A DNA stretch of 62,935 nucleotides, the filler included, from Craspedostauros australis (taxonomy: Eukaryota): NCBI GenBank assembly GCA_030167865.1. It is 12 parts of 12 records of this genome, joined end to end, with 100 filler letters (N's around TTAATTAATTAA, not from the genome) between each part and the next. Parts side by side here need not be neighbours in the genome. Positions count along the whole stretch, not along the records: positions 1 to 5,056 come from JALAGF010002734.1; 11 more parts are not named here. The stretch is one strand, 5' to 3'. Position numbers and translations under genes: made by a program. Shown piece by piece: positions 1 through 59,901 of this stretch (positions are counted from its first letter, which is position 1; each line of letters starts with the position of its first letter). The notes beneath the pieces are model-generated. The model saw nothing but the letters and a program-made list of their open reading frames with translations, did no database searches and was not told where the DNA came from.

Positions 1-1020
1 GCTTCAATCTGTTTTGTAGATTCAGTCTCCGACTATGAGTCGGTACGCGAGATGCTCTCTCGCTCCTTTCTGTATTCTCTCTCTGTCGCGACATGGGTTA
101 TAAGCGTTAATTTCTTGTGTTCATGCAGGGCGTGGACTGGCTCCGTGGTTCGATTCCGCAGCGCGCTATTTTAACATGGTAGCGTGGCCTAAGGTTCGAT
201 TCCGTCGGCTGGTACCCACCCCTGCTACNANAAACACACAGAAACACCCGAAACTTGCCGACTGCCTACAGCGGCAGTATAAAGATAGAGTGTGGGGGGT
301 CCTCATGATAGGGGGGCTCAAGGGCATGAATCCAAGAATTAGGGAGGGTGTCGCGATATGGGTTATAAGCGTTAATTTCTTGTGTTCATGCAGGGCGTGG
401 ACTGGCTCCGTGGTTCGATTCCGCAGCGCGCTATTTTAACATCTCTCTCAACACCGTGTGCTCGTGCTACACGATACTCCGTGTTCGATGCGTACTCCGT
501 ATTCGACACTCCGTTCGTTCAGTACTGGCTCCTACTCCATGAGTACTCGCCATTTGAAGTTCACCTTCAGTATTCATGATGCTGATGCCCTCTTCGGTCA
601 TCGGATCTTCGCCTCCTGTTCTGACTTGGAGACAGATGTCCACGTGGTGACATGATGGCATCCTGTCGACGTCAGTAGGTGTCCTTCTGCTCTCCAGATG
701 TCACGTTCCATTGGTGATGCAGTAGTCTGTCAGATGATATCGTCATCTGAGGTTTAGTTGGGAAGTACCTCGAGATTCTCTTGGTATCATTGATGGATGG
801 ACGGACGATCTTCCAATTCTCTCAGAAATCGTCATTTGCAAATTTCCTTCAGAAATCTTGCTCCTTTTCGTGTGTTCCGTCTCCCCTGTAATTCTGACGA
901 ATCACAGCATATTATCGAAACGAATGTAGTTATACCGTCCAAGTGCGTATGAGAGAATAACAGGTGAACGATGCACATATACACGTACATCTCGACATGT
1001 ACTCCCATGTACATCTCGAC
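1..1020. repeat. ~700-bp interspersed repeat, copy A (interrupted by the TRIM, cut by the window start)
   Basis: 1-83 plus 442-1020 align by eye with ~1435-2068 (e.g. CTATGAGTCGGTAC, GTAGGTGTCCTTCTGCTCTCCAGATGTCA, GTGAACGATGCAC). Confidence 0.85.
84..441 (+). mobile_element. TRIM (terminal-repeat retrotransposon in miniature), 358 bp, non-autonomous
   Basis: Two 93-bp direct repeats (84-176 and 349-441, one mismatch) with TG...CA ends. PBS-like TGGTAGCGTGG directly after the 5' LTR (177-187), polypurine tract AGGGAGGG (341-348) directly before the 3' LTR, TCTCTC on both flanks, no coding capacity. Confidence 0.9.
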
Positions 1021-1344
1021 ATATGGGTGTGAGTGTGACACAGTCTTTATGCGTCGGATGACTCAACTTGTTGGTTGCTTGATTCAGGCGCCTCACAGTC
1101 CTCTCAACAACTGAGAATCGACAATTGCAGCTACATGTACGACCTGAGGCCATACGCTGGCGCTGACAAAAGAGGATATTGATATGCGCAAAATACAGCA
1201 TGCGCAGCACATGCTTTGTGTTTTCGAAGAGCGTACATCTGGGATGGAGACAGTGCAATTGGTGATGACATTGGCAATGACATACGCCTGACCAGCGGTT
1301 GTTGGCAAGTTCCGTGATTGGAAGCCTACGATCGTGGAAGACGG

Positions 1345-2068
1345 TGTTGTTGATAGTCGATCTGTTTGCTATTTCATTACGTTAATACTTCAATCCTCTC
1401 GGTGTCTGTTCTCTTGCCCGACGCTCTCGGCGCGTTTATCTGTTTCGCAAATAGGGTCTCCGGCTATGAGTCGGTACATGAGATGCTCTCTCGCTGCTAT
1501 TCGTATTCTCTCTCTCTCAGTATCGTGTGCTCGTGCTGCACGACACTCCGTTCATTCACTACTGGTTCCTACTCCATGAGTACTTACCATTTGAACTTCT
1601 CCTCACGTATCCAAGATCTCGATGATCTTCGGTCATCGAATCTTCACCTTCTGCTTCTGACATGGAGACAGATGTCGACGTGGTGACACAATGACATCCT
1701 GTTGACATCAGTAGGTGTCCTTCTGCTCTCCAGATGTCATGTTCCATTGGTGATGCGATGGTCTCTCAGATGATATCGTCATCTGGAGTTTAGTTGAGAG
1801 GTACCTCGAGTTTCGCTCGATACCATGCGTTTCCATTGATGGATGGACGGACGATGTTCCTGATTCTCTCAGAAATCACTGATTGCAAATTTCCTCCAGA
1901 AATTCCGCTCATTTTCGTGTGTTCCATTTCTGTTGTGATTCTGACGAATCACATTATACTATCGACACGAATGTAGTTGTTCCGTCCAAACATGTATGAG
2001 AGAATAGCGGGTGAACGATGCACGTATACACGTACATCTTGACATATACACGCATGTACATCTCGACA
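1345..2068. repeat. ~700-bp interspersed repeat, copy B (same orientation as A)
   Basis: Collinear with copy A and with the reverse complement of 2917-3680. Left boundary is approximate. Confidence 0.8.
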
Positions 2069-2916
2069 ATACTGTTGTTCTTGTCCATGCTTGTGCAAAG
2101 TCATACCTATACCCGCATCTCTTTCTCTCTTCGCTGCTTGGTTGGTTGTGTGTTGTCGTTGCTGTTCGTGTAGTTATCATTTCATTCTTCAATATCTTGG
2201 ACATGGAATCCATCAAGAGTAGTTCATATCTCGCCCAACTTATTGGCAACACCAATGGTGCCCTTGGTGTATTTGAATTTGACACCATGATCTTCCTTTT
2301 TCTCGTATTGATTGCGACGACTATCGAGTGCCGCCATCGTGCCAGGCAAGAATTCTGACTCATGAACTGGTTAAGAAATGAATGGCGATCTCCTCCTGGA
2401 TGCACGGTATGCCTGGTTTGTCTCCCTTTGGATTCGTTTTCATTCCAATTTGAGACTCCTTGAACTCCTTGGGGAGCTTCTCCTTTCTACATGTCTCACA
2501 GGATGAACTCTTCTTTCCAACGGAACGTGCACAAGCTTGTCGTATGCCCTGTTCTTGTTGTGTTGGACCTTGAACATGTTGGTGTTGGATCCCTTCAAGT
2601 AGTATGTGGCATGAATAAAGATAGTTTGCAGTGTTTGATCCTCCAGCTCTGGCTTGTCTGCATTCTACCTTGCACCAATGAAGGACACAATTCCATCTGC
2701 CAGATTTTCTTTGCCTTTGGACACGGTTCCGAAGGCTGGGGCGAAGTGCTCTGCTTTGGAATTCTTGTTGCGTCTCATTGGGGCAAGTGCATGCACCAAG
2801 TCGATGTCCATGATAACCATCTCTTTGTTCTTGTATGACGCTACTGTGGCATCGATGTCATTGCCACGTTTACCAAGATCGGCGAGAGCTTCGAGAATCC
2901 TGTTCTTGCCATTGCC

Positions 2917-5056: not shown

Positions 5057-5156
5057 NNNNNNNNNNNNNNNNNNNNNNNNNNNNNNNNNNNNNNNNNNNN
5101 TTAATTAATTAANNNNNNNNNNNNNNNNNNNNNNNNNNNNNNNNNNNNNNNNNNNN
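5057..5156. other. Artificial contig linker (first of 11; others at 8688, 19908, 21277, 22662, 24538, 26530, 52814, 55673, 58320, 59802)
   Basis: 44 N + TTAATTAATTAA (stops in all six frames) + 44 N, identical each time. Confidence 0.98.
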
Positions 5157-8687: not shown

Positions 8688-8787
8688 NNNNNNNNNNNNN
8701 NNNNNNNNNNNNNNNNNNNNNNNNNNNNNNNTTAATTAATTAANNNNNNNNNNNNNNNNNNNNNNNNNNNNNNNNNNNNNNNNNNNN

Positions 8788-16213: not shown

Positions 16214-18139
16214 TCAAGCTGCCCAGTAGTCATCACTGGTCGACGCCTTCTGCTCATCTTCGTGCCATTGCATCCCCTTGATCATGGTGGACGAAAGGAA
16301 GGCAAACAACGTCGTCCAGCTCTGCTGGACGGGCGGCGTCCAAGCATCACCGAGCCCCATTTCCAACGTCTTCAGCATCGCCTGTCCGACGATGGGGAAA
16401 TGCTGCGGCTTGGCGCCGTACTGGGCGTGCCGCTTGCCGAGATCTAGCAAAAGCTCAACGACGGGCTCCAGATCGAGGCCGATGATATTGGTGACAGCAT
16501 CCACCATCCGGACCACGCTGCGCGCGTGCACCATGAAGACCGGATCCGCAAAGATGGCGGCGTGATCAGTTTCCTGGCCGCTGGCGTGGTGCGCACCCGG
16601 GAACATCTGCTCGATGCCGGGGGCGAGATCGAAGATGTTCTGGAAGAGGATCTGGGCGACGAGGTTCTCGTGGTCGGGGATCTTCTTGACCTGACTCCAG
16701 GTTGCGTGGATATCTTGGAGGATATTGGACGAGGAGAGCAGGGCCCCGGCCTCCGGACCGGCAACATGAAAGGCCAGCTCCTCCTCCGATGTTGATAGGT
16801 ACGTGGATGCGGAGGTCGAGCTGACGCTGTGGTACGATGCCATGCTGGATCGTCTGCTGAGCTGTTTGTCCTGAGAATCGTGAGTGGCAGCGCTTTCACG
16901 ATGGATGGAGTCGCGGGTCGATGATCGGTGATGGTGCGACTGCGACTTCGATGACATCGCCGACGACTCTCCAGAAAGACGGGGGCGGCTCTGCCGGCTG
17001 CTGTTGCTACCCATGCTGGAGATGCTACGTCTGCCACGCATTTTTGGCTTGGACGATCCCGATGGGCGCGTCTGACTTTTGCGTTCCTGCTGCTGCTGTC
17101 GATTTCTTTGCTGGAGTTCTTGCGCACCTTCCATCATGGTGGTCGAAACGACCGCAAAAACTGCCTTCCATGCGTGCTCCATCTCCGCAGTCCATTCCTC
17201 CACTCCCAACGCCCCCTCCAGCGTCTCCAGCAATGCCTGACCGACGACATCGTAATGAGCCGGTTGGAGATCGTACGCCGCATGACGACCCCCCAGCTGC
17301 TTCAGCGTGGCCGTGAGTAGGTCCAGGTCCGTTGCCAGCAGATCAATCGCCGCGCCCAAGGTCGAAACGACGCCCGTGGAGTGCTTGATGAAGGCCTTGG
17401 AATGACGGTACATGGCATCCGGGATGGAGTGCTCGTACGTGCTGGAAGAAGAAGAGGGGTACATGAAGAGCTCGCCGCCAAAGCCAAACATCTGTACTGC
17501 ATCTGGTGCGATGGCAAAGATTCTGTATCACAACATATAGCAGAGGGAGCAGTATCAAACCATTTCGAAGAGCAAAAGACCGATAGCTGTGGGGTTAGAA
17601 TGGATGGACGAATGGAACGAAGCCACGAGAGTTTCCCGCGATACGAAATGAAGTCAAGGAGCTGGGGCGTCAAAGACCGTCAACCTGATGGCGCAGAGTT
17701 TCGTTGTTTCTCCCTTCCCGTTCAATGACCTTTGGTTGCCCACCCAGGCTTGCGACTCCTCAGCGCCTCCTGTCCCGTTGGTCACATCGCAGGCACAGAA
17801 CAGATGAAGCAAAGTACGGAACGTATCATGACTCCGAGACCACTATCCGCCGTGGTCATTTCGGTCATCATCGACAACACAGCGCGATGCATGAAGGACG
17901 TACCTGCGGAAGAGGAGTTCACCTGCCACCTTCTCGTGGTTTGGGATCTTCCTGATCTGATCCCAAGACTTGCGCACTGCCGCGACAACCGAGCGTGGGA
18001 TTGCGACATCGTCATCTTTGCTGCTGCTGCTGCTGGATGTCGCATTCACCGGGGCTGCGCTTGTTGTTGTGTTTGTGGAGAATGCAGTGCTTTGCGATGC
18101 CAGCTGTTGCGAGACTGGTGAAAGCATGGCTGATGACAT
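16214..18139 (-). CDS. Two-domain (tandem) neuroglobin-like globin, 514 aa; exons 18139-17904 and 17522-16214
   Basis: Intron 17903-17523 (GTACGT...ACAG) joins KSWDQIRKIPNHEKVAGELLFRR to IFAIAPDAVQMF in frame. Both domains have A-helix Trp, CD1 Phe, distal His (FIKH, FMVH), proximal His (LGGRH, LGKRH) and VGQA/H-helix W motifs. A Ser/Arg-rich linker separates them. Confidence 0.92.
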
Positions 18140-19907: not shown

Positions 19908-20007
19908 NNNNNNNNNNNNNNNNNNNNNNNNNNNNNNNNNNNNNNNNNNNNTTAATTAATTAANNNNNNNNNNNNNNNNNNNNNNNNNNNNNNNNNNNNN
20001 NNNNNNN

Positions 20008-22661
20008 AAGAGATGCGCAGAGTGCAATGGTTGTGTTCGAAGTACTGCTTCGCAAGAGACACCCAGTCACTGCTTTCGCTCCTGCCAGTTTTCCTATCTT
20101 CGAGACACATGGCTTTGAGACACCAAGCTAGACATGCGATAGCACATGTATGCAACCACACAGACTGCAAGATAGATTGGTAACATCTTCATTTGCGCTC
20201 ATTGACATTGTTGCTAGACGTGAAGAGTTGAGGTAATACTTCTGAAAACTGTACGTGTATGTTCATGTCTGACTATTCAAACAACGGTAGTCTATCCCGA
20301 ACGTGGATTGGCCTGACCGATGATGCACGTTTGATGGTGCTCGAGTTGAGGAGGGCCCGGTAGCAGACATCTTCATGGTTGTTCTTCCGCTGGTGAGGTT
20401 GACCGCTGCATGATCGTGACGATCGGACGCGGTGCTGACTGATTCGCCAATCTATTAGTGGTTACCCGCATCCCCCAGGCTGTATTTGTCCGTTGAGTCA
20501 TTGAGAGTCACGCTCAGTACCTGGGAATGATAGNGCGTTCTTCGTCTCNGATTTCCAGCGAACACGAGCGCTTTCGGCACATGTGAGTATCATGATACTA
20601 TGCCCCAACACAGATGAGGAGCGGTGAAACTACAGTGACCGACGTGGCGAACGCACCNGCACNTCGAAGAGGGAGGGGCAATACATGGGGGAGAACACGC
20701 TCCAGTGTCCAAGCCCCGTCGGATCGGTGTTCTTCCGAAGTTTCGCACTCGCGAACGTGCATTGGCACTCGCGTAACCGTCACTGAGTATGTTAAGCGGC
20801 ATGCGTTGGTAGTGACATGGTCACGACACAGGACCGACATGAGATCCCTATGAACACGCCTTGGACACGACACAGACGTGCGACAAGCACGACATGAACA
20901 TGCGACAGACACGACAGAGGACCGGATCGACGAGCAAGGGGACGCGCAAGTGACGAGCAAGGGGACGNNNNNNNNNNNNNNNNNNNNNNNNNNNNNNNNN
21001 NNNNNNNNNNNNNNNNNNNNNNNNNNNNNNNNNNNNNNNNNNNNNNNNNNNNNNNNNNNNNNNNNNNNNNNNNNNNNNNNNNNNNNNNNNNNNNNNNNNN
21101 NNNNNNNNNNNNNNNNNNNNNNNNNNNNNNNNNTAGCACACGTATTTGATCTTGATTGCAACATCATTCTGAAACACAGTTGACAACAGAGTTTTGCATC
21201 GCAGCGTCTCCAGACTGATCACCTACGATACTGTGACATCTCTCTATAAGTAAAGTGCGGTAAGGGACATGTCGATNNNNNNNNNNNNNNNNNNNNNNNN
21301 NNNNNNNNNNNNNNNNNNNNTTAATTAATTAANNNNNNNNNNNNNNNNNNNNNNNNNNNNNNNNNNNNNNNNNNNNAAGAGATGCGCAGAGTGCAATGGT
21401 TGTGTTCGAAGTACTGCTTCGCAAGAGACACCCAGTCACTGCTTTCGCTCCTGCCAGTTTTCCTATCTTCGAGACACATGGCTTTGAGACACCAAGCTAG
21501 ACATGCGATAGCACATGTATGCAACCACACAGACTGCAAGATAGATTGGTAACATCTTCATTTGCGCTCATTGACATTGTTGCTAGACGTGAAGAGTTGA
21601 GGTAATACTTCTGAAAACTGTACGTGTATGTTCATGTCTGACTATTCAAACAACGGTAGTCTATCCCGAACGTGGATTGGCCTGACCGATGATGCACGTT
21701 TGATGGTGCTCGAGTTGAGGAGGGCCCGGTAGCAGACATCTTCATGGTTGTTCTTCCGCTGGTGAGGTTGACCGCTGCATGATCGTGACGATCGGACGCG
21801 GTGCTGACTGATTCGCCAATCTATTAGTGGTTACCCGCATCCCCCAGGCTGTATTTGTCCGTTGAGTCATTGAGAGTCACGCTCAGTACCTGGGAATGAT
21901 AGNNNNNNNNNNNNNNNNGATTTCCAGCGAACACGAGCGCTTTCGGCACATGTGAGTATCATGATACTATGCCCCAACACAGATGAGGAGCGGTGAAACT
22001 ACAGTGACCGACGTGACGAACGCACCCGCACATCGAAGAGGGAGGGGCAATACATGGGGGAGAACACCCTCCAGTGTCCAAGCCCCGTCGGATCGGTGTT
22101 CTTCCGAAGTTTCGCACTCGTGAACGCGCATTGGCACTCGCGTAACCGTCACTGAGTTTGTTAAGCGGCATGCGTTGGTAGTGACATGGTCACGACACAG
22201 GATCGACATGGGATCCCTATGAACACGCCTTGGACACGACACGGACGTGCGACAAGCACGACATGAACATGCGACAGACACGACAGAGGACCGGATCGAC
22301 GAGCAAGGGGACGCGCAAGTGACGAGCAAGGGGACGNNCAAGTGACNACCAAATTTCTCGCAATTACCGTGGTTTTGTCNNTGTGACATGNNGCGAAANN
22401 AGNCCATACTACGNTGTCTAATCTAGTTGTATTTTAAAGGGCGGCAGAGTGCACTTTTCAAAAATAGACTGCATGAATGTAAGCGTACTATCCATATCAT
22501 GCTAGCAAACGTGTTTGATCTTGATCGCAACATTATTCTGAAACACAATCGATAACAGAGTTTTGCATCGCGGCGTTTCCAGACTGATCACCTACGATAC
22601 TGTGACATCTCTCTATAAGTAAAGTGCGGTAAGGGACATGTCGATTTTTCAGGAATCGACG
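20008..22661. other. Two allelic or alternative contigs of one locus (20008-21276 and 21377-22661)
   Basis: Both start at the same base, are identical for 526 bp, then collinear with scattered SNPs up to GTAAGGGACATGTCGAT. Confidence 0.9.
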
Positions 22662-22761
22662 NNNNNNNNNNNNNNNNNNNNNNNNNNNNNNNNNNNNNNN
22701 NNNNNTTAATTAATTAANNNNNNNNNNNNNNNNNNNNNNNNNNNNNNNNNNNNNNNNNNNN

Positions 22762-23228: not shown

Positions 23229-24537
23229 CTATTCTTCATCCTGCACGCTGCCTCCCAGTTGTTCCATCACTTGGGGCAGGATCTTGTCGACTTGTTTCTT
23301 TTTGCTCTTCACAAGGGTGGATGGAATTGGTTTTGGGCAACTGTGAAGGAAGTGGCCGAGCTCGCCGCATCCTGGGCACAGTCGCACTCCTCTGGTAGCT
23401 GATGGATTGTCGCTATTGGTAGTTTTCCGCTTCCGACCCGACTTCGCGGAAATCATCATGGGCACCACATTCTCTGCCACCAATTGTCTTCGTTCCACCC
23501 TTGCTCGTTGAATGGGCACCACCTTTTTTCCGTGTTGCTCCAACCATGTGGCAGTATGCCATTCCTTGCTGTACCAACCAACGTTCTTGTAGTGAAAGAC
23601 GCCTGGCGGTGCATTCCTGGGCCTAGCAGCGTCTGCGCGGAACACTGCCAGGATGTGGAGACAGGGCCTCTTGTACTCCAATGGAGCACCACAGGTGCAG
23701 GTCATTGCAAAGTCCGATCTGAGAGTCACTTCCTCAGAAATGGTAGGGCTGTCATACCACATGACACTCGCTTTGATCTCGGAGTCATGTACACTGTCCA
23801 CGAGCACGTTTAGTTTCCCGGATTTTTTGTTCAGCATGTCCATGTCAGACATGCAACGAGGAGTCAAGACATTTCCAGTGTTCCAGTGTTCTTCTGCCTT
23901 CATGGCTTTCTCCATGCGCTTGTCAGCCATGTACTTGATAACACCTGCCACCAGTGTGCAAAGGGGCTTGTCTCTGATGTGTTCGAGGGCTGCATTGACC
24001 TGTTCGGAAGAATTAGACGTGACGATACCAAAGCGATGTTGATTGGGTTTGCGAAGCAACAAATGTGTCAGGCATTTATGTTGGCGTTGAATAAACCATT
24101 CGTGGAGTTTTGGATTCTGTGCCTGGACTTGGCTCAACTTCTGATCTGCATAATTCTCATTGCAGGCATACACAGCTGACTTGAGGAGCTTGTGCTGTCT
24201 TGAGGTCATTGTCAGCTGCTTGTTGGATGAAACATTCTTGTCCAAGATGTGGTACATGCAACGCGTGTGAGTGACGCCCCATCCTGCCAACATCATTTGC
24301 ACTTCGCCACTCTCAAGGCCCTTCGCACCATCGCTCATGAGCAGGCGCACCTTTGGAAAGCTGTNCCTCACATGATCGAGGAACCATTTCCAGTTGCTTG
24401 CTGTTTCAACAGGGAGAATGCCAAATGCAAGAATGACGAGTTGGCGTGATGCATCATAAGCGGTCAGGAGGCACATGTAACCCTTCACTGCAGATCGAAG
24501 GTGAGTGGCATCCACGCACACCATACCATCGAAATGA
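23229..24537 (-). CDS. Mutator-like (MULE) DDE transposase, 5'-truncated
   Basis: CVDATH, LAFGI...ET...W.WFL, MSDGAKGL, RCMYH, TSNSSEQVN (catalytic D, D, E and CxxH), SWIM finger CTCGAPLEYKRPCLH and zinc knuckle CPGCGELGHFLHSC. Confidence 0.92.
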
Positions 24538-24638
24538 NNNNNNNNNNNNNNNNNNNNNNNNNNNNNNNNNNNNNNNNNNNNTTAATTAATTAANNNNNNN
24601 NNNNNNNNNNNNNNNNNNNNNNNNNNNNNNNNNNNNNC

Positions 24639-26529: not shown

Positions 26530-28277
26530 NNNNNNNNNNNNNNNNNNNNNNNNNNNNNNNNNNNNNNNNNNNNTTAATTAATTAANNNNNNNNNNNNNNN
26601 NNNNNNNNNNNNNNNNNNNNNNNNNNNNNGTGTCACACAAAGACCCAGAATCTCACTCACAACTGTGTTCACAAAGTCACAGCCGACGACATGATACCAA
26701 AACGGATACTACCAACAGAAGTATCTCAACAGCCAACTGCTGTGTCGCCGTTCACATCAAAGGAACACTTCTGTCCTTGTTTTGTTGGGATTTTGTAGAA
26801 AACAATTTTGTCAATTTTGNGTATGTCNTGGTACTATTNNNGTANTACTAGNANTAANCGNCAACAATACTGAGCATANNATAGTACCATCNNAACNNTA
26901 TCATGAACGTNTCGGTCGGAATCGTCGTTCNGTTACGACAATGAAGTTTGTCNCNTNGAGATACTCAAACGGAGATACTGCACGTAAATAATTACAGTTT
27001 ATTTGCTCAATACGTGATTTCTGAGAAAGTGTCAAAGTTCCACAATTCCTCGTGCGAAACCGACCACGCAATCCCACCGCCTCTGTCAGCGTTCACAACG
27101 AGAATCGATCAGACAGGGAACAGATCGTCTGCGTCACACGGTTCCAAATGAGAACCCCAAGCGCAACAAAGCTGGGGAAAATTGACCCAAACTCCCCTCA
27201 ATTCACCCTTCAATGGGATGGCTTGCTCGTAACAATGATAAAGTCTAAGCCATTTGATTGGCTGGGGTCGCCGGCCATGCCAAAAAATAGCCACTCGAAC
27301 CCCTCTATTTATTGTGGTGGAGCGCGAACACAAAAAGAGAGAGGACGATTTGATGCGCTGTTGTTGGACGGAATGACTGGCGACAGCTGCGCCGATACTT
27401 CACGAGTTGTGTGCAAAGACATGGCGCCATGATCGACACCATCACCGACGGTCGTCACGCTGTTGTGATTGACAGGACATCCGAGAAAACGAAGCGGAGT
27501 TATTCGGAGATGGCACAACCGAGAGACAGTAACAAGAAAGGACGACAGCAACAGCCAAGGGAGGCGGCAACAGAGTGGAAGCATCGGTCTGAACCCCCCA
27601 TTCCATATAATCGATTGCATTGCGTTGCATCACAGATCGCAAAACAAGAAGGAGATTGGCAACACCGCCAACGACTCTGATTCGCAGTGGAGTGAAAGTT
27701 GTTGGACGAAGCGAATCGGCACTGGCGCAACGCCGTTTGGATCGACATCTGTGCCGCAGACGGACAACGAGAGTGTCACCGTGATCCATCACCGGCGCAC
27801 GCGGAGGCTCTTCCCAAACGTACGCAACCTTGCGCGGGGCAATCTGGGACGCGGGTCTCCCTCCAAGCCAAGGAGGATTTCGCACGTCCTGTTGCGTCCT
27901 CTCTCACAAGCAGCACCAAACAAAGAGGAAGAAAGAGGGTGTTGCCGTCTTTGGTGCTGGAGAAGAGCATAGTTGTACAATCCACTGGTATTGTACAGGA
28001 CACACAACCACACAAGCACGTGCGAGAACGAGCAGACAGCTCGACATCTCTGACGACTTCGTCGAGAACATTCCGCATACGCTTCCAATCCACTTTGCTT
28101 CATCGTCAGCATCATCCGCAACATCCGCATCGTCAGGAAGAACTGGAACAACAACGGCACCAATCAAGAGTGTGGGCGGGTGAAACTCCATCCCTTCATC
28201 GTCTCCATCTCCAACAATCGCAAGATCTATTGGCAATAGCAACAGCAGCACAATTCCAATTGTAACACTATTGCTCA

Positions 28278-31200
28278 ATGGGACAGACAATGTCCATATG
28301 TCCGCCGACTCCATCAGCTCAAAGCGCAACGATGTCCAACATGGTGGCTTCCGAATCTCCTCCTGCTGCTGCTTCCACATCTGCCAAGTCTATGGCTACT
28401 TCTGAGAGAGGAGAGGCAAAGCAACAGCCTCCATCCCATGATGGCAAGGATGTAACAGCACCTCTCAACGACACAACCACAGCTAAATATACTCCCAATC
28501 AGCAGCAACAGCAGCAGCAGCAGCAACAGGAGTCAGCTCCCATCGACCAGACAGCCATCTCGCCTCTGCGCCTGGACTTCCTTCACAAATTTCGGGCAGC
28601 TGCGTGCGGCCCGACCTTACCGCCAGCCATCACCATTACTGCCCCCAACAGCGCTGCTTCTTTGTATTGTGATCAGCCGCATTCTGCCGATTCCATGGAT
28701 GATGAATCAGAGCATGAGCATCATGATGAATCAGAACATGACGATGCCCAACATATCCATCGCTATCCGCAACAGCAGCATGTTTGCGATCATCCCAACA
28801 GCCAGCACACCAATCTAAGTGGGGACACGTACTCCTACGACGAAACGACGGATGCAAGCCACACCACCTACGCATCCGAAGCCATCACGCTCAGCGAACG
28901 ATCGGGAGGGCATGGTTCTAAGCTCATGCTGGAATCCATGTCCACCAATAGCAGTGCCAACAGCAACATCCTGGCAGGCATTCCGAATCTTGCAGCGCTG
29001 CGGAGCGGACAGCGCAACTCCACCTTTGCGGAAATGCCCAACAGGGTGCGCAGGAACGTCAGCACGGGGTCCGCACCCACCAACCTTCCCTTCCCAATGG
29101 CAGCGACGCAGCAGTCACCATCTCCGCAGCATTCCGGCATTCTCAAGCATACCGCGAGTCCACCACAGGAGGACGCGCAGCATCTGCAGGCCATGCTGCA
29201 GGGATACCAGACGCGCATCAAGTACCTCGAGCAGAAGGAGATCCTCACCAAGCTTCAGCTCAAGGGATACGAATGCTCCATCGACGACTACAAGTGCAAG
29301 ATGCAGACCATGCAGGCGCAGCTGCAGAAGCAGGAGGCCATCATCGCCAGGTACGAGGATCGTCTGCACCGCGGCAACGGACTCCTCACGGCCAACCAGT
29401 CCATGCACAGCGTCAACTCCATGGCCTCCATCTCGTCGTCAGCGTCGCAGCATCTGCAAACCGCCACGAACACGTCCTACATGAACCTCTCCAATCTGCA
29501 GCAGTGGCTCTTCGATGAGGGCACCAAATCGAACAAGGTGCAGCCCTGGATGATCCAGTACTGCCAGAAACTCAGAGATTACAACATACCCATCGACCGT
29601 CTCTTCATCACCAACGTCATTCCCCACGATCCCACCTTCTACATGTACGGCTGGGTCTGGGAGTACAACGAACCATTCACGCAGTTCAAGTACACCAAGC
29701 AACAGTTCGATGCCAAGCTCCACACAGCGCCGCAGGACGAATGCTTCCATCTTCTCTACACCAATCGCAAGAAACGGGCCAATCAGAAACGAAAGAACAC
29801 GAAGAACCTCGACAGCGTCCTGCCCGGCAACCATTGGACGCAGGAGCAAGATCTCAAGCAGCGAGTTGGGTATAATACACAGCAGCGACGACACATGAGA
29901 CGATCTTCCTTGGGTGACGTGCAACGACAGCAGTACACGCACTACTTCAGTCTGCCCATTTACCAAAATGACAAATTCATGGGCTCCATTTCCTGGGTCA
30001 CCAAGAACATCACGGGATTCTCCAAGTACCATCTCCAATTCTTCCAGCAATCCATGGCCGGTCTGGCCCTCATCGTGCGCTACCAAACCAATGAGGCCAA
30101 CCAGGAGACCCTCATGAAGCGCATGGAGGACACCGTCCATCAGCGCACGCAGGAGCTGGCGGCCGCCAACGCCAAACTGCAAAATGCCAACCGCCACATC
30201 CAGCAGCAATCGCAGGCGCAGCTGCGGCATTTCGCCATGATGAGCCACGAGATCCGCACGCCGTTGAACTGCATCATTGGTCTGTCCGGACTCCTCGTCA
30301 AGGATGCCTCGTTGACGCAGGACCAGCAGGAGGCACTCAAGATGATCACGACGTCCGGCGATCTCCTGCTGCACGTCGTCGACGATGTCCTCAACTTTTC
30401 CAAATTGGCCGTCGGTGAGGTCGTCTTCCACATGGCGCCCATCTCGCTGCGCGATACCTTGCGCACTGTCTTTCACAACATCCAGCAGCAGCAACAGCAC
30501 GTGCGTCTGCGCGTCTCGACGCCGCAACCCTTGCCATGCCGCATCGTCATGGACACGCGGCGGCTGCAGCAGGTGCTGTACAATCTGCTGGGCAACGCCG
30601 TCAAGTTCGGTCGCGACGGCAAGTACGTGGATTGCACCATCACACAGGTCGGCATCATGATGGATGAAGCCTCCGATGAGCAGTCGGCCAATGTTCGGCG
30701 CGAGATGCAGATGCTGCAATTCGACATTCAGGATTACGGCGTCGGCATCCATCCCGATCATATGGCCAACATCTTCCAGCCCTTCCGACAGTTGTCTGTT
30801 GATACGGAACGCGAGTACGGCGGCACGGGGCTAGGTCTGGCGATCACGTCGAACCTGGTCAAGGCCATGGGCGGTCGCATCGACGTGCAGTCGGAGTGCG
30901 GCAAGTGGTGCAAATTCACGGTCCAGATGCCGTTGACGTTGCCGGATGAAGATATGGAAGGCAGCATGCAGATGGAAGATGTCGCGCCAGCATCCGCGCT
31001 GCGTCAGGATCGGTTCCAACTTTCCAACAACTTTTTGGAAATTCACGAGTTGTCCAAGATCGTTCAAATGGAAACAGACAAAGAGGAGTTGCCACCTCCT
31101 CCGCGCAGCACTCCCAACATGGTGGAACGCACGTCGTTGATAAGTTTGCCGCCACCCAACCATGAGCAGCTTTTGCAGGATTTGGATAAGATGCTGCAAG

Positions 31201-31964
31201 AACAGCAGGATGGTTCGTCGTCGTACACTGAAACCACCGCGCGGTTCGCACGTCCCGACGCAACAGCCACGCCCAAATCGCAAGCGCTGAACCACGAGCA
31301 GCTCATGAATTATTTAGATCGCATCGGCAAGCAGCAATCGCAACGTAGTTTGATTCCGGAGACGGCAAAGAACGAGGTGACGCCCGCGAGCGATGCAGAG
31401 AGCATGCCGAAGGAAGATGCGCCGACGGCAAAACCTCCGCCTGTTATCGTCACGTCCTCAAAGCCGATCAAATCGACACGACCCAAGATGGCGGCCGCCG
31501 ACCAGCCCGTTCCGAAGAAGGCGCGTGCAGGCGACGGTGCGTCATCACCATGGAAGGCGCTGAAGGTTCTCGTTGCCGAAGACAACAAGGTGAATCAGAA
31601 GGTGTGCAAGCGCATTCTGACTCGCATCGGCATCACCGACATTGATATCATGGACAACGGGCAAAAGGCGGTCGACCAGGAGCAGAAGAAGGCGTACGAT
31701 TTGGTGCTGATGGATTTGGAAATGCCGGTCATGAACGGGCTGGATGCCACGAAGCACATCATCCGACGACGCAATGAACTGGCGGCGCCATTGCCTCGCG
31801 TGCTGTTCTTGAGCGCGCACGCGTTGGAGGAGTACAAGACACAGGCCCGCGAGGCTGGTGCCGATGGATTCCTGTCGAAGCCGTTTCGGATTGAAGCCAT
31901 CGAGACGTCGTTGAAGGAATTGAAGTTCGATGGCACGCAGGCGATGTGGACAACGGGCACGTGA
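28278..31964 (+). CDS. Hybrid sensor histidine kinase (GAF-like + HisKA + HATPase + receiver), 1228 aa, soluble
   Basis: H box SHEIRTPLN, N box QQVLYNLLGNAVKF, G1 DYGVG, F box IFQPF, G2 GGTGLGL. Receiver VAEDN...LMDLEMP...LSA...SKP. Single intronless ORF. Confidence 0.95.
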   Translation: MGQTMSICPPTPSAQSATMSNMVASESPPAAASTSAKSMATSERGEAKQQPPSHDGKDVTAPLNDTTTAKYTPNQQQQQQQQQQESAPIDQTAISPLRLDFLHKFRAAACGPTLPPAITITAPNSAASLYCDQPHSADSMDDESEHEHHDESEHDDAQHIHRYPQQQHVCDHPNSQHTNLSGDTYSYDETTDASHTTYASEAITLSERSGGHGSKLMLESMSTNSSANSNILAGIPNLAALRSGQRNSTFAEMPNRVRRNVSTGSAPTNLPFPMAATQQSPSPQHSGILKHTASPPQEDAQHLQAMLQGYQTRIKYLEQKEILTKLQLKGYECSIDDYKCKMQTMQAQLQKQEAIIARYEDRLHRGNGLLTANQSMHSVNSMASISSSASQHLQTATNTSYMNLSNLQQWLFDEGTKSNKVQPWMIQYCQKLRDYNIPIDRLFITNVIPHDPTFYMYGWVWEYNEPFTQFKYTKQQFDAKLHTAPQDECFHLLYTNRKKRANQKRKNTKNLDSVLPGNHWTQEQDLKQRVGYNTQQRRHMRRSSLGDVQRQQYTHYFSLPIYQNDKFMGSISWVTKNITGFSKYHLQFFQQSMAGLALIVRYQTNEANQETLMKRMEDTVHQRTQELAAANAKLQNANRHIQQQSQAQLRHFAMMSHEIRTPLNCIIGLSGLLVKDASLTQDQQEALKMITTSGDLLLHVVDDVLNFSKLAVGEVVFHMAPISLRDTLRTVFHNIQQQQQHVRLRVSTPQPLPCRIVMDTRRLQQVLYNLLGNAVKFGRDGKYVDCTITQVGIMMDEASDEQSANVRREMQMLQFDIQDYGVGIHPDHMANIFQPFRQLSVDTEREYGGTGLGLAITSNLVKAMGGRIDVQSECGKWCKFTVQMPLTLPDEDMEGSMQMEDVAPASALRQDRFQLSNNFLEIHELSKIVQMETDKEELPPPPRSTPNMVERTSLISLPPPNHEQLLQDLDKMLQEQQDGSSSYTETTARFARPDATATPKSQALNHEQLMNYLDRIGKQQSQRSLIPETAKNEVTPASDAESMPKEDAPTAKPPPVIVTSSKPIKSTRPKMAAADQPVPKKARAGDGASSPWKALKVLVAEDNKVNQKVCKRILTRIGITDIDIMDNGQKAVDQEQKKAYDLVLMDLEMPVMNGLDATKHIIRRRNELAAPLPRVLFLSAHALEEYKTQAREAGADGFLSKPFRIEAIETSLKELKFDGTQAMWTTGT

Positions 31965-33149: not shown

Positions 33150-34787
33150 ATGGGATGCGCACGATCCATCCCCGTTCAACCAGGCGGCCACCACCCAACA
33201 GCGTCGCAACAACCATCCACGAATCAATGTGGCGATGGATTGGAAGGATTCCACAACGGCTACTCGCACACCAACAGCAACGCCAATGACGGCGTCGACT
33301 GCAAAGAAGCCAAACATGGGCGCCGTGGTGTCTGGTCCAAGCTGCGTCGTTTCAACAAACGCAACAAGCATGTCAAGAGCAATGGCCGTGATGATAGCAA
33401 CGGTGGCCTGCTCCAACACCAATATTCTCCAGCAGGCTCGTCAATGACGCAAGAACAGCAGCAGCAGTTGCGCCGTCATCAACACCTCCTTGCCTCGCGT
33501 GGAAACGGCAAGCGTCCAACGTTGGCAACGGCGTACTCTGGGTCGATGGAGTACAGCAATACATCGCAAAAGTCTCTCTACAGCTACGCAACATCGACGG
33601 TCGCCGGAAGCCAAACCATCAGCAGCAGCATGTACAGCCTTGGCCAGCAGACCTACCTGCGCCAGCAACAGCAGCAGTACAACGCGTCGCGCCCTCGGAT
33701 GTACTCGCATGGCGCACAAGGCGAGAATGAGAGTCTGTTCAATTTCAGCCTTGACGGCTACACGGCCAACAACGATGACACAACCACCTTCACCGATTTC
33801 TCGTACGACGATACGAGCAGCCGCCTTCGTCCACACGACAGAAACAGCAATGTCAACAGCAACAATGATGGTGACGATGGTGATGACGACCAGTTCATCT
33901 TCAATAAGACACAGAAGCATCACCCCGATCCCGCTGCGGATGGCGGCCACCAAGAGTCGCAACCCTTCGGAGAGATTTCGTACGAAGAAAGCACGGACTG
34001 CGATGACCAGGTGAGCTTTCTCGGCCTGCCAACGGGTAGCACAATCGGGACCACCTCCCCGATGGTGGGAGGGTTCGATCTCGGCATGACCACACCGGAA
34101 GATCAAGCTGGCGTGCAGCTCCAGCTCCCCACGAATCTCATGAAGATGCCGACGCTGCTGAATGAAGGTCATATCATGAAGGGGCGTCGCTCCACCACGT
34201 CGCCGACGCAGCGCACTGACGATGAACCGCGAGACCCACCTCCTGCACCCGTGCACAACGATCACCATGTGTTGCGTGACCCTGCAGGATTCAAAGCTGC
34301 CGCCGCGACATCCAAGCCGTTCGATCGACGCAAGGGTTTCGAATCCGAATTCTCCAGCATCTGGGCGTCCAAGTCCCATGCAACGTCCACCGGAGCATGG
34401 TCGGCGCAGCCAGAACAATCGACCAACATCCTTGTGAGCACACGTGGCATCCTGGAATCGTTGGAGCAGCGGTACTTTGAACGCAAAGTCGAGGCACCAG
34501 CTGGTGAACTGGGCATCGCGTGTCGTCGCAAGGTGAAGAAGCAAGGTCTGCTGCCGGAAGAACAATGCATCGTCGTGGATGCCATGGACGAGGACAGCCC
34601 ACTCAGCGGTGCTGTGCGACCAGGCGACGTCATCCTCGAGCTCAATGGCAAAGCCACAAGCGGCATGTCAGCAGTACAGTTCAGCCGTCTGCTGTTGGAG
34701 TCTCGAGAACGACCGCGAAGCCTGCTCGTGCAGACCGACACCATCAAGTCTCAAGCCTACGACTATTCGCTTCGTGCTGGTGAATGA
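33150..34787 (+). CDS. PDZ-domain protein with a long disordered N-terminus
   Basis: 545-aa ORF. C-terminal APAGELGI...DSPLSGAVRPGDVILELNGKATSGMS is a PDZ pattern. Starts MGCARS. Confidence 0.85.
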   Translation: MGCARSIPVQPGGHHPTASQQPSTNQCGDGLEGFHNGYSHTNSNANDGVDCKEAKHGRRGVWSKLRRFNKRNKHVKSNGRDDSNGGLLQHQYSPAGSSMTQEQQQQLRRHQHLLASRGNGKRPTLATAYSGSMEYSNTSQKSLYSYATSTVAGSQTISSSMYSLGQQTYLRQQQQQYNASRPRMYSHGAQGENESLFNFSLDGYTANNDDTTTFTDFSYDDTSSRLRPHDRNSNVNSNNDGDDGDDDQFIFNKTQKHHPDPAADGGHQESQPFGEISYEESTDCDDQVSFLGLPTGSTIGTTSPMVGGFDLGMTTPEDQAGVQLQLPTNLMKMPTLLNEGHIMKGRRSTTSPTQRTDDEPRDPPPAPVHNDHHVLRDPAGFKAAAATSKPFDRRKGFESEFSSIWASKSHATSTGAWSAQPEQSTNILVSTRGILESLEQRYFERKVEAPAGELGIACRRKVKKQGLLPEEQCIVVDAMDEDSPLSGAVRPGDVILELNGKATSGMSAVQFSRLLLESRERPRSLLVQTDTIKSQAYDYSLRAGE

Positions 34788-43895: not shown

Positions 43896-46191
43896 ATGTC
43901 CGGATCCGCTGCAATGGCGTCTGATGACGAAGAAGAGTACGAGTACGAATACTCGGATGACGAAGACAATGACTACGAGTACACAGACGACGATGATGTC
44001 GTCATGGGGAACTCCAGCAACCATCGCTCCAGCAAGGCGGCCAGCTACCTCTCCTCCCCAGACATGGATTGGAGCGCGACGAACAGCGGCGGCAACCCAA
44101 ACGCGCCGCCCGTTTCAGGAGGTGCGTATCAATGTATGCTTGTGGAATGCTTGTGGAGGATAGCATGCAGAGCAACTAGAGAAAGCAGAGCTATTCCCTG
44201 CTCTGTGGTCATGGTCGCACTCATTGATCGGCGAAGCTGCGTACGCAGTTCTCCATCTGTCTGCGTTCAATTGAGTTGCTTTGCTTTGTGCGCCAGTGTT
44301 GCAATCCATGTGATCAGCCAACACAAGACCACACGTTGTGCATATACCTTTGTCCATGGTCAAGCATACTTCGTATCACAGCTCGTCGCTCACATTCCAA
44401 TTCCGCATCCATTCCTCTTCCATGTTCTCCGTGTTGCGATTACTTCGCCACATTTTTGCATCGTATCTCACATGTGCGACCTGCTCACTCCATCATCACT
44501 GCATACCCTACATACTGTACGACCATACACACTGATGCACACCGCATTGAAACAATCAACCGATCAACCGATTAAACAACAGCCCAAAAGTCAGGCATCC
44601 GCATGTTGCCATCGGAGGAGTTGGTGCCAGAGATGCGCCGGCGGTTGAAGGACGTCATGGAGGTTCTGGACATCCCATCAGCCGCGGCCATGGTCCTTCT
44701 GCGGAAACACAAATGGTCCAAGGAGGCGCTGCTGGAAGTCTTCTACTCATCCGACAAACTCCTCAAGGAATGCGGCGTGCACAACCGATGCAGCCCAAAG
44801 CCACAACCCAAACCAGGCAGCTCCCTCGGCTCATGCGGAATCTGCTACGATGACATGACGACCGAATCATCGCTGACCATGCCGTGCGGCCACACATTCT
44901 GTCTCCTGTGCTGGAAGGATTTTTGCGCCAATGCCATCAACGAGGGACCAGCGTGCGTGGAAACCACCACCTGTCCGCAGGCCTCGTGCAACGAGCTGGT
45001 GACGGAGGTCGAGATGGAGGCAAGCCTCAAGTCGGGAGCAACGCCCTCGACGCAAGCCAGGACCGACAAGCTCCTGCAAAAGTACTCCACCTACCAGCTG
45101 CGATCCTTCGTCGAATCCAACAGACTCACCCGGTGGTGCCCTGGAAAGGGATGCGAATTCGTTGCCTGCGCCTCGTCGCAAGCCTGCTTGGAGACCATCC
45201 AGGATCGGACCACCCAGTGCCACTCCTGCACGACCGCCTTCTGCGTTGTTTGCGGAGAGGAGCCGCACGCACCATGCGCATGCAAGGACGTCACGCGGTG
45301 GAAGGACAAATGCCGCAACGAATCCGAGACCGCCAACTGGATCCTCGCCAATACCAAATCATGCCCCAAGTGCGTTTCCAGAATCGAGAAGAATCAGGGC
45401 TGCAACCACATGACCTGCGGACGCTGCAAGCACGAGTTCTGCTGGATCTGCATGGGCGACTGGAACAACCACGGTGCCAACACCGGCGGCTACTACAAAT
45501 GCAACAAGTTCGATTCCAAGACCGGCGGCGGCGTCGAGGATCAGTCGGAAGCAGCGCGCGCCAAGCGAGAGCTCGATCGGTACCTGCACTACTACAAGCG
45601 CTATCATGCACATGACGAAGCCGAGAAATTTGCGCGCAAGCAGCTCCAGGAGACGGAGGCCAGGATGGTCATCCTCCAGGAATCGTCCAGCAACTCCAAG
45701 TGGGCCGACGTGGAATTCTTGAAAGCGGCCAACGAACAGCTTGTGGAATGCCGCCACGTGCTCAAGTACACGTACGTCTACGCCTACTACTTTGGCGCAT
45801 CGCCCAGCATGCAGAAGGAACGATTCGAATATCACCAGGAAATGTTGGAGCGATTCACGGAAACCCTGTCAGAGCTGTCGGAGAAGCCAGTGGCTGCGAT
45901 GGACCGAACCGAGGTCGTCAACACGGTACGTCGTGGTGGTAGTGTTGATCGTGTTGACCGTGTGTGTGCAGTGTGTGGAGTACGGTATTGGCTACAAGCT
46001 CATTTTCGCAACACATTGCAGAGACTGAGAATCAGATTCTCATCATTCTCACCAATTCGCCCTTCCTCAACTCGGCTCGGCTCTGTTTCACTTCCTTCTT
46101 GACTAAAACAACACACACACAGACACGCGTCGTTGATCGTTTCATGCGCAATATCCTCAAATACGTGGAGGAGGGCATGGAAGAGGCATGA
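43896..46191 (+). CDS. ARI: Ariadne-family RBR E3 ubiquitin ligase; exons 43896-44121, 44583-45925, 46123-46191
   Basis: Acidic N-terminus, RING1 (CGIC...CGHTFCLLC), IBR (WCPGKGC...FCVVCGEEPHAPC), RING2 (CPKC...IEKNQGCNHMTC...FCWIC), Ariadne domain (RYLHYYKRY, LKYTYVYAYY). Two GT-AG introns keep the frame; an alternative in-frame acceptor exists at 44594. Confidence 0.93.
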
Positions 46192-46585: not shown

Positions 46586-46657
46586 GTCTCCTTGGTCTAG
46601 AGGTATGATTTCTGCTTTGGGTGCAGAAGGTCCCGGGTTCGATTCCCGGAGGGGACC
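46586..46657 (+). tRNA. tRNA-Pro (anticodon UGG)
   Basis: 72-nt cloverleaf: acceptor GTCTCCT/AGGGGAC, anticodon arm TCTGC-TTTGGGT-GCAGA, T arm CCGGG-TTCGATT-CCCGG; TTTT just downstream. Confidence 0.97.
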
Positions 46658-47435: not shown

Positions 47436-47507
47436 GTCTCCTTGGTCTAGAGGTATGATTTCTGCTTTGGGTGCAGAAGGTCCCGGGTTCGATTCCCGGA
47501 GGGGACC
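47436..47507 (+). tRNA. tRNA-Pro (anticodon UGG), identical second copy
   Basis: Same 72-nt sequence as 46586-46657, followed by TTTT. Confidence 0.97.
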
Positions 47508-52813: not shown

Positions 52814-53667
52814 NNNNNNNNNNNNNNNNNNNNNNNNNNNNNNNNNNNNNNNNNNNNTTAATTAATTAANNNNNNNNNNNNNNNNNNNNNNNNNNNNNNN
52901 NNNNNNNNNNNNNGTGGTTGCCATGATCACACAGCTGTCCATTGATGAAGGCTTCTTCCAGCCTTTCCAAGTCAGTTACTAGAGAGACAGACTAAGCAAG
53001 TAGAGCAGAGCAGAGTAATTGGTTGTACACGTATGAACAATGCATCGCGCAGGAGACCCATTTTGCCTGTCGTTGTTGTCATTTTTTGTTTGTGTGGTTG
53101 CCAATTCGAATGAATCCCGTTGGGTCTTTGTTTTTAGACCTGAGGGAAATTATCTATATTACCATGGCTCCAGGTGGCGCCAAACAACGAATTTCGGTTG
53201 TTGTGCTTCTTTTACCATCGACATCTCACATGCACGACTCACAGATCGTAGGTACGATTGGTTGCACGCAGTCTGGACATCACACGATGAGAACAGTGTG
53301 CGATTGTCCGCCCTCAATTTTGGCTTCTCTTGTGTGTGACAAAAACGACCACGAACGGCCAAAACGACATCGTTGGTGGTGGTGACGATGATGACGGAGG
53401 GAGCAATGACCCTCCGTATCGCACAAACCACCACGACAAACGTGTTCTGTGTTCTGTGGTTGTGAGAAAACGGATCCACCAACAACAGCGAGAGCACGAC
53501 GCACACGCACACGCACACGCACGCTGGATCTGTCCTCACCCAACACCACCCAAACCAATCAAGCGATCAAGCAATCAAATCGACAGCAACACCAAACAGC
53601 ACACAAAAACAAACTTGGCATTCCCAAATCCTCTTCACGACCGTCAACGAATCCTTTTCTTGCAATC

Positions 53668-55672: not shown

Positions 55673-55795
55673 NNNNNNNNNNNNNNNNNNNNNNNNNNNN
55701 NNNNNNNNNNNNNNNNTTAATTAATTAANNNNNNNNNNNNNNNNNNNNNNNNNNNNNNNNNNNNNNNNNNNNACTCCATGAAGGAAACTCTCCCA

Positions 55796-58319: not shown

Positions 58320-58419
58320 NNNNNNNNNNNNNNNNNNNNNNNNNNNNNNNNNNNNNNNNNNNNTTAATTAATTAANNNNNNNNNNNNNNNNNNNNNNNNN
58401 NNNNNNNNNNNNNNNNNNN

Positions 58420-59801: not shown

Positions 59802-59901
59802 NNNNNNNNNNNNNNNNNNNNNNNNNNNNNNNNNNNNNNNNNNNNTTAATTAATTAANNNNNNNNNNNNNNNNNNNNNNNNNNNNNNNNNNNNNNNNNNN
59901 N

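Follow-up and report, generated by a model that had tools for sequence, protein, structure and literature searches.

A miniature retrotransposon with a tRNA-like module in its long terminal repeats in the diatom Craspedostauros australis

The element at 84-441 and its insertion site

We analysed a window of 62,935 nucleotides (nt; the whole stretch of DNA considered here, 62.9 kb) from the diatom Craspedostauros australis (assembly GCA_030167865.1), in which positions 84-441, within the first contig (1-5056; JALAGF010002734.1), are occupied by a terminal-repeat retrotransposon in miniature (TRIM). As read from the sequence, the element is 358 base pairs (bp) in total and consists of a pair of 93-bp long terminal repeats (LTRs) and a 172-bp internal region, and each LTR contains a stretch that is laid out like the 3' part of a tRNA gene. 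The features of the element and of its insertion site are as follows.

80-83, + strand: target-site duplication, 5' copy TCTC, identical to 442-445
84-176, + strand: 5' LTR, 93 bp, TG..CA; direct repeat family D3, 99% identical to 349-441
98-103, + strand: TTATAA, a TATA-like box about 30 nt (26-31 nt) upstream of 129; read from the sequence
129-168, + strand: tRNA-like module ("mini-tRNA"), presumed R/U5; 5' strand 129-134, T arm 145-159, 3' strand 156-167, A168
138-148, + strand: A-box-like TGGCTCCGTGG, one mismatch to TRGCNNAGTGG, abutting the B box
147-157, + strand: B box or T-arm motif GGTTCGATTCC, exact; the same as the T arm of both tRNA-Pro genes of the window
162-186, + strand: hairpin between U5 and the primer-binding site (PBS), 162-170 with 178-186, 9 bp with three G-U pairs and a 7-nt loop; minimum free energy (MFE) structure of 141-190
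169-172, + strand: TTTT, like a terminator of RNA polymerase III (Pol III), directly after the discriminator base A168; read from the sequence
177-188, + strand: PBS TGGTAGCGTGGC, immediately 3' of the 5' LTR; read from the sequence
177-348, + strand: internal region, 172 bp, too short for a protein and free of T runs of three or more
193-203, + strand: second GGTTCGATTCC box, in the internal region, exact match
341-348, + strand: polypurine tract (PPT) AGGGAGGG, abutting the 3' LTR; read from the sequence
349-441, + strand: 3' LTR, 93 bp, with the module repeated (B box 412-422, TTTT 434-437)
442-445, + strand: target-site duplication, 3' copy TCTC, identical to 80-83
1438-1551, + strand: paralogous empty site within a duplicated segment of about 1 kb (families D5 and D7); by alignment

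The two LTRs are identical at 92 of 93 positions, with C92 versus T357 as the sole difference. A repeat search returned a direct repeat of 94 nt (84-177 and 349-442, one mismatch), and the true LTR is 93 bp because one flanking T is common by chance. The element has an LTR pair bounded by TG..CA, a PBS and a PPT adjoining the LTRs and a target duplication, and is non-coding and shorter than 1 kb; it is thus a real TRIM. An earlier reading of the same sequence, referred to below as the preliminary description, had called it a TRIM, and the LTRs, the PBS, the PPT, the 4-bp target duplication and the empty paralogous site bear this out. Its statements on the sequence, namely TTATAA at 98-103, the boxes, A168, TTTT at 169-172 and the PBS at 177-186 (where TGGTAGCGTG is present), were likewise all correct.

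The insertion could be examined against an empty counterpart. A segment of about 1.04 kb is duplicated in window 1-2100, in pieces that are 82-96% identical (families D1, D2, D4, D5 and D7), and the TRIM is present only in the first copy. In the alignment, the CT run measures 11 nt at the empty paralogous site versus 7+8 = 15 nt flanking the element, and the target duplication is assigned a length of 4 bp because the run is 4 nt shorter at the empty site. A 5-bp duplication was rejected, as it does not fit the borders of the element.

Evidence on further copies came from contigs of one independent public sequencing run (X1), the one run in which the element was found; these contigs were compared with window 1-228, the positions 229 and 231 being N. 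Positions 1-80 had no coverage in X1, and two other runs (X2 and X3) yielded no contigs on this stretch, observations from which no conclusion is drawn. A 200-nt contig over 84-228, which continues into the internal region, has a depth of 147, a 67-nt contig that bridges the end of the internal region and the LTR start has a depth of 140, and a 640-nt contig with a depth of 13 joins the LTR start to a different 5' flank. There were no variant letters across 84-228. The base at place 92 was C in all three contigs, and T357 is therefore private to the copy in the window. The run is marked 'RNA?' in its record, which is a guess only, so that the copy number is approximate; we read it as DNA because the continuity from U3 to the PBS and the junction of the internal region with the 3' LTR are equal in depth. 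With this qualification, the element is found in X1 at roughly ten-fold the depth of a flank and at one or more further insertion sites. Several near-identical copies exist, and the element is probably young. Within the 62.9-kb window itself, no second copy or solo LTR was detected by blastn at word size 7.

The tRNA-like module and its known counterparts

The last 48 bases of each LTR, the presumed R-U5, are arranged like the 3' portion of a tRNA gene to which a 5' acceptor-like strand and a motif resembling an A box have been joined. The module itself is about 40 nt in length, or about 44 bases including the run of four T residues (T4). The 3' strand at 156-167 is in the canonical 5+7 register of a tRNA, with a 5-nt T-stem strand and a 7-nt acceptor strand, and is followed by the discriminator A168 and TTTT. 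The motif GGTTCGATTCC occurs exactly at 147-157, 193-203 and 412-422; the window as a whole contains five exact copies versus 0.07 expected, a number reached in none of 100 shuffles, and the remaining pair forms the T arms of two genuine tRNA-Pro(TGG) genes. The claim that the LTR carries a unit of TATA box, tRNA-like part and TTTT was upheld, its layout being like that of both tRNA-Pro genes. In each of these genes, TATAAA is located at about -39 to -33 and a T4 is found three bases past the discriminator, a hint that tRNA genes of this diatom rely on TATA boxes upstream and on short terminators. They are located at 46586-46657 and 47436-47507, 850 bp apart.

That the tRNA likeness is a chance resemblance within an otherwise ordinary TRIM would agree with the silence of the tRNA finders and with the unremarkable fold energies described below. 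However, the exact 11-mer is present twice independently versus 0.07 copies expected across the 63-kb window, and the 5+7 register, the discriminator A and the T4 are present in addition, so that we consider coincidence extremely improbable. From the sequence, we infer that the module is probably a tRNA gene, or a tRNA-derived short interspersed nuclear element (SINE), minus positions roughly 20-53.

The module also resembles the tRNA that the PBS calls for. Six of the seven bases at 129-135 match the 5' acceptor strand implied by the PBS, and 161-168 match six of the last eight templated bases of the inferred primer end in exact register. By binomial arithmetic, the latter agreement (6/8) has a p of about 0.004, and the register match is therefore unlikely to be due to chance; the complementarity of the 3' end of the module to the PBS is real but modest. 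T167 and A168 correspond to the U72/A73 end, which we take to be a hallmark of eukaryotic initiator tRNAs, and the T loop of the module is of the elongator type, which presumably speaks against a simple descent from an initiator tRNA. The resemblance of the acceptor stem to that of the primer tRNA may reflect either descent from such a gene or a U5 shaped to pair with the PBS. Read-through into the primer tRNA was rejected as the source of the tRNA-like stretch, since it would give an antisense tRNA downstream of the PBS and not a sense one upstream.

The module is not a functional tRNA gene, which would form a cloverleaf with D and anticodon arms and be called by a tRNA finder. ARAGORN at default settings called only the two tRNA-Pro genes in the window, and the Rfam tRNA matches were likewise confined to them. 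Calls of 89-99 nt obtained from ARAGORN with relaxed thresholds were mutually inconsistent and were discarded.

Among the known elements, the class closest to the diatom element is Helenus, which was described by Kojima (2024; PMC10886601), a source used here in its accessible text, Table 1 and supplementary DataS1. In these parts, Helenus elements are TRIMs of less than 1000 bp with tRNA-derived sequence in the LTR, for which the role of a Pol III promoter was proposed, with Pol III transcription itself unvalidated there; their hosts are rust and agaric fungi, six animal phyla and Selaginella (Table 1). Helenus, Cassandra and Ajax together make up the proposed 'TRIMp3', that is, TRIMs with Pol III promoters. 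The comparison with Cassandra made in the preliminary description was apt, and the closer class, Helenus/TRIMp3, was not named in it.

The likeness to Helenus extends over several features of the accessible consensuses. In the Helenus LTRs, as judged by eye, the tRNA-like part occupies the 3' portion, with a T run and a short CA-terminated tail behind it, and the diatom LTR has the same order of tRNA-like part, T run, short tail and CA, followed by a TGG-type PBS. Several Helenus internal parts start with tggtagcg, and that of Selaginella with tggtatc (PMC10886601, DataS1); TGGTAGCG opens the PBS of the diatom element as well as some of the published internal parts. The elements are non-coding in both cases, with lengths of 311-1263 bp for Helenus and 358 bp for the diatom element, the B box is of the GGTTC type, and the target duplications are 4 or 5 bp in Helenus and 4 bp in the diatom element. 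The tRNA-derived LTR sequence with box B by which Helenus is recognised is present in the diatom element as an exact GGTTCGATTCC, a 4-bp T stem, a 7-nt 3' strand of the acceptor, the A and the T4. As for box A of Helenus (TRGCY ... YGG), TGGCTCCGTGG fits it with one mismatch, abuts box B and is of a kind that is matched at chance frequency. T-arm-like motifs of the form gggttcaat(t)ccc, on which no remark was found in the accessible text of the paper, are visible in the internal parts of the fungal Helenus-2_PGr, Helenus-3_PSt and LTR-1_PTrit (by eye, PMC10886601, DataS1), and the second box of the diatom element at 193-203 parallels these motifs of the three fungal internal regions.

The diatom element differs from Helenus in three respects. 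The modules published in the accessible material are full-length sequences of about 72 nt in which the A and B boxes are separated, whereas in the diatom module, of about 40 nt, the A-like motif abuts the B box. Furthermore, the tRNA-like part of Helenus is stated by Kojima (2024) not to be complementary to the PBS, whereas the diatom element has 7 templated base pairs in register. No diatom or other stramenopile is among the Helenus hosts in the text, Table 1 or readable supplement of that paper, and a comparison by eye of the diatom element with the consensuses in part 1 of 10 of its DataS1 and in further passages revealed nothing similar beyond the boxes.

Our literature search turned up no tRNA-like TRIM described from diatoms. 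For Phaeodactylum, 27 'putative TRIM/LARD' (LARD, large retrotransposon derivative) are listed without detail in the accessible part of Rastogi (2018; PMC5859163), and no mention of tRNA primers was found in the accessible part of Maumus (2009). In the sequence collections, the exact 26-mer 147-172 had no match in viral_contigs and none in metagenome_contigs. Generalised patterns of B box, T run and PBS matched one locus and six loci in viral_contigs, all of which lie in phage tRNA arrays and were rejected. The 20-mer 138-157 had a single match in genome_contigs, in a metagenome-assembled genome of Verrucomicrobiae; there is no tRNA at that place, the number is about that expected by chance, and the match was set aside.

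According to the accessible part of PMC7215508, each LTR of Cassandra contains a 5S unit complete with promoter and terminator, and the PBS, which is of the initiator type, is located 8 nt from the 5S part in ferns. The diatom element thus shares with Cassandra and Ajax a small-RNA-gene module inside both LTRs and an initiator-type PBS just downstream (PMC7215508 and PMC10886601, accessible parts), and differs from them in that its module is tRNA-like whereas theirs are 5S-derived. No 5S match was returned by Rfam, either for the whole window at the gathering threshold or for 1-600 at E<=10, and the element is not of the 5S-derived Cassandra/Ajax kind.

In Tf1-like self-priming, the transcript folds back with its 5' end onto the PBS. 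The diatom element is similar in having a stretch of its own RNA that is complementary to the PBS, but its presumed transcript 5' end, 129-135, has the sense of the PBS and not of its complement (129-137 versus 181-189, 7/9 identical). Moreover, the complementary bases 162-168 are found at the U5 3' end, and priming from them would require both a new 3' end and CCA. Complementarity of the 5' transcript end to the PBS, the mark of the Tf1 type, is thus absent, the transcript start being itself a presumed one.

Folding of the leader RNA and the choice of primer

The preliminary description had proposed that the module folds as a minihelix. The parts can be drawn as described: the acceptor-like stem (129-134 with 162-167) has 6 bp including two G-U pairs, and the T stem (145-148 with 156-159) has 4 bp including one G-U pair. 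The two junction pairs, 135:161 and 144:160, are both mismatched. The mini-tRNA fold of the isolated 40-mer has an energy of -10.1 kcal/mol versus -11.3 for the MFE structure, and it is no more stable than shuffles, with a z of +0.95 and 167 of 200 shuffles at least as stable.

On the other hand, the U5-PBS hairpin, which had been raised as half of a plainer alternative, stood up: in the leader-length RNA 129-228, the U5:PBS pairs form at a probability of 0.75-0.99, as against about 0 for the acceptor-like helix and the T arm. The whole leader can also adopt a long, imperfect hairpin spanning 132-219 that places the second box at 193-203 opposite the LTR box; by energy, this hairpin is not significant (z -0.9). 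The leader fold has an energy of -32.7 kcal/mol on the + strand versus -23.3 for the complement, and the better fold of the + strand would fit with the G-U pairs mattering, as weak evidence from the folding model.

Extended contacts with the primer tRNA in Ty1 and U5-PBS stems in retroviruses provide a further comparison. The diatom element resembles these systems in that its PBS lies within a local U5 hairpin with short boxes near it, and it differs from Ty1 in that its boxes have the sense of the T arm and are not its complement. The second box was confirmed as an exact match, and the 12-mer 193-204 is the same as the LTR 12-mer 412-423. The two GGTTCGATTCC boxes might be imagined as Ty1-like contact sites that would base-pair with the host primer tRNA at its T arm and so prolong the interaction at the PBS. 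One box begins 16 nt past the PBS start, the palindromic UCGA core of the T loop permits partial pairing with a T arm, and the T-arm-like motifs of the three published Helenus internal regions (by eye, in the accessible DataS1 of PMC10886601) are in keeping with the idea. Nevertheless, both boxes are identical in sense to the T arm of the host tRNA-Pro and do not have the sequence of its complement, and the LTR box is upstream of the PBS, within a stretch in tRNA register that ends in the T4, which points to tRNA-gene ancestry. We therefore regard such contacts as improbable. A reading in which the second box prolongs the PBS into the T arm of the tRNA was likewise rejected, because the reverse complement of 177-203 is off register, with the T loop shifted by one base and the T stem unpaired.

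With regard to priming, the PBS implies a primer that ends in the reverse complement of 177-188, that is, a tRNA ending in ...CCACGCUA(CCA), and an initiator tRNA-Met ending in ...GCCACGCUA would match the PBS perfectly over 12 nt. A pattern for the host initiator tRNA, composed of acceptor strands derived from the PBS and an initiator anticodon-stem motif, had no match in viral_contigs and matched five loci in metagenome_contigs, three of which are tRNA-Met(CAT) genes on low-GC contigs and two of which are not tRNAs. In the three tRNA-Met(CAT) genes (metagenome contigs L002, L004 and L005, places 1501-1579), the acceptor stem matches the PBS of the element exactly; those of L002 and L005 encode CCA and look archaeal, and that of L004 is without a following CCA; the three genes are not related to the host. 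On the PBS motif and general knowledge, we infer that a host initiator-type tRNA-Met primes reverse transcription at the PBS.

The preliminary description had raised the possibility of a different primer, made by the element itself. In this scenario, a Pol III RNA of about 40 nt, or the genomic RNA with its 3' end trimmed after A168, would receive CCA and prime at the PBS of the element. It had correctly noted that, with CCA added, the 3' end of the mini-tRNA can form 10 contiguous bp with the PBS, one of them G-U, a duplex that we calculated at -17.8 kcal/mol; only seven of these pairs are templated (162-168 with 180-186), the others being CCA with TGG. The exact register of these pairs, the p of about 0.004 for the 6/8 identities to the inferred primer end, and the position of the 3' strand in the 5+7 minihelix register with its discriminator A all speak for a primer of this origin, and such complementarity of module and PBS is unusual, being present in no Helenus family according to the accessible parts of Kojima (2024; PMC10886601).

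In contrast, the PBS would pair better with a perfect 12-nt partner, at -24.0 versus -17.8 kcal/mol, and the bases 3' of the PBS are not complementary to the mini-tRNA. In replication of the retroviral type, the plus-strand copy of the PBS is templated by the primer, and repeated self-priming should therefore convert T185, at the G-U position, to C; both the window copy and the contig of depth 147 retain T185, which is a weak argument in that contigs hide minority variants. In addition, the minihelix has both junction pairs mismatched and folds no better than shuffles, and in the leader-length RNA its helices have a probability of about 0, the bases that would pair with the PBS being engaged in the U5:PBS hairpin (0.75-0.99). 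The notion of a self-made tRNA-mimic primer was not supported, and we consider it very unlikely, whether as a separate RNA or as a trimmed genomic one. The same low standing applies to the broader idea that the module works as a tRNA minihelix mimic that gains CCA and either primes at its own PBS or competes with the host initiator tRNA; if true, this would be the first LTR retroelement with a tRNA-like primer or decoy of its own. As a whole, the earlier interpretation is partly supported: in the TRIM, the tRNA-like unit, the likeness to Cassandra and the U5-PBS hairpin, and not in the self-encoded primer.

Transcription and mobilisation of the element in its genomic context

Taken together, we slightly favour the reading that the element is a young non-coding TRIM of the Helenus/TRIMp3 type in a diatom, in which a minimal tRNA-gene module serves as R-U5 and which is mobilised in trans and primed by the host, the end of U5 pairing with the PBS. 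In such an element, copying would depend on an autonomous LTR element, itself unseen, that supplies the reverse transcriptase and integrase, a host initiator-type tRNA-Met would prime at the PBS, and the U5 bases that resemble a tRNA 3' end would pair with the PBS as the 9-bp hairpin in the genomic RNA.

Several observations weigh against this reading. There is no autonomous partner in the window, and none of 60 open reading frames (ORFs) scanned, comprising 8 + 52 ORFs, contained a retroelement domain (reverse transcriptase, integrase or gag); the 52 were taken from 87 stop-to-stop ORFs of at least 150 amino acids, those omitted being mainly ORFs overlapping others already scanned. The searches of viral_contigs, metagenome_contigs and genome_contigs found no relatives or diverged copies, and no diatom initiator tRNA was among the pattern matches in viral_contigs and metagenome_contigs, so that host priming rests on the PBS motif and general knowledge. 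No tRNA was called in the LTR by ARAGORN (default) or by Rfam at the gathering threshold; at E<=10, the best Rfam match was a partial one of 16.7 bits to transfer-messenger RNA (tmRNA), covering the T arm and the next hairpin, for which the gathering score is 70. The weak Rfam matches, to the cyanobacterial tmRNA model and to sR24, were accordingly not taken as memberships. No fold is significantly better than shuffles (z -1.19 to +1.45).

The promoter motifs raise further objections to the favoured reading. The consensus of the A box is TRGCNNAGTGG, and matches to it with one mismatch occur at chance frequency in the whole window (19 found versus 21 expected), so that the A-box-like 138-148 is only suggestive as a motif. 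Its final GG doubles as the opening GG of the B box, and it starts 9 nt before the B box, versus about 44 nt in a tRNA gene; this spacing and the chance-frequency match together make canonical use of TFIIIC doubtful. Finally, the T4 lies just 40 nt past the presumed start in the 5' LTR, and most Pol III transcripts would terminate there, short of the PBS.

As judged from these motifs, it may be possible that the TATA box, the A and B boxes and the T4 act as a Pol III unit, a tentative assignment that stands about evenly balanced against use of the TATA box by RNA polymerase II (Pol II). On the + strand of 129-441, runs of four T residues are found only at 169 and 434, with none of four or more between the T4 of the two LTRs; the genomic RNA would then be the fraction of transcripts that reads through the 5' T4 and ends at that of the 3' LTR (R = 129-172, about 309 nt).

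Alternatively, the element may be an ordinary Pol II TRIM, in which Pol II would initiate at about 129 under the control of the TATA box. The tRNA-like stretch would then be the remnant of a former tRNA or SINE insertion, retained only for the RNA structure of R-U5, which comprises the U5:PBS hairpin and the long hairpin of the leader, with no role in Pol III transcription. LTR promoters usually have a TATA box about 30 nt ahead of R, as does this element. The near absence of the tRNA-like helices from the predicted leader-length RNA, where the U5:PBS helix reaches 0.75-0.99, the non-canonical spacing of the A and B boxes with an A-box match at chance frequency, and the T4 40 nt into the transcript all suit Pol II. 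However, an exact B box is present twice independently in 265 unique bases, the T4 follows immediately after the discriminator in tRNA register, and no polyadenylation signal is nameable in the 48-nt R-U5; the same layout with conserved boxes is also found in the published Helenus families (PMC10886601, accessible parts). We therefore attach to a purely Pol II element a lower, though appreciable, likelihood.

If the preferred reading as a TRIM with a tRNA-gene module is confirmed, the class of LTR elements with small-RNA-gene modules, which includes Cassandra, Helenus and Ajax, would extend to diatoms and so to stramenopiles, and such a module could shrink to about 44 bases with fused A and B boxes, which would set a lower bound for possible recruitment of Pol III factors. 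Annotators of diatom genomes should bear in mind that elements of this kind can give rise to dispersed exact B boxes and to tRNA-like 3' ends. The register-exact match of module and PBS, absent from Helenus as published in the accessible parts of Kojima (2024), could serve as a test case for U5-PBS pairing or self-priming in LTR retrotransposition.

With respect to the surroundings, the window is composed of contigs chained by eleven identical linkers (44 N + TTAATTAATTAA + 44 N) of the six-frame-stop type, at 5057-5156, 8688-8787, 19908-20007, 21277-21376, 22662-22761, 24538-24637, 26530-26629, 52814-52913, 55673-55772, 58320-58419 and 59802-59901. These are chained draft contigs, and the gene neighbourhood across linkers is therefore not real. 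An ORF at 23229-24524 on the minus strand encodes MULE transposase and SWIM zinc-finger domains, is a Mutator-type DNA transposon and adjoins contig linkers. Long intron-free ORFs at 28278-31964, 16214-17491 and 33150-34787 encode a hybrid histidine kinase with receiver, a protein with two globin domain matches and a PDZ protein, respectively. The ORF at 44603-46102 encodes an Ariadne-type RBR ligase, the best matches of which are in diatoms, in line with a diatom host, probably a pennate one, whose own proteins the database lacks, the top one being 80% identical (120 matches listed); among the matches listed, those named, at 57-68%, are from Nitzschia, Pseudo-nitzschia multistriata, Cylindrotheca, Mayamaea, Epithemia and Thalassiosira.

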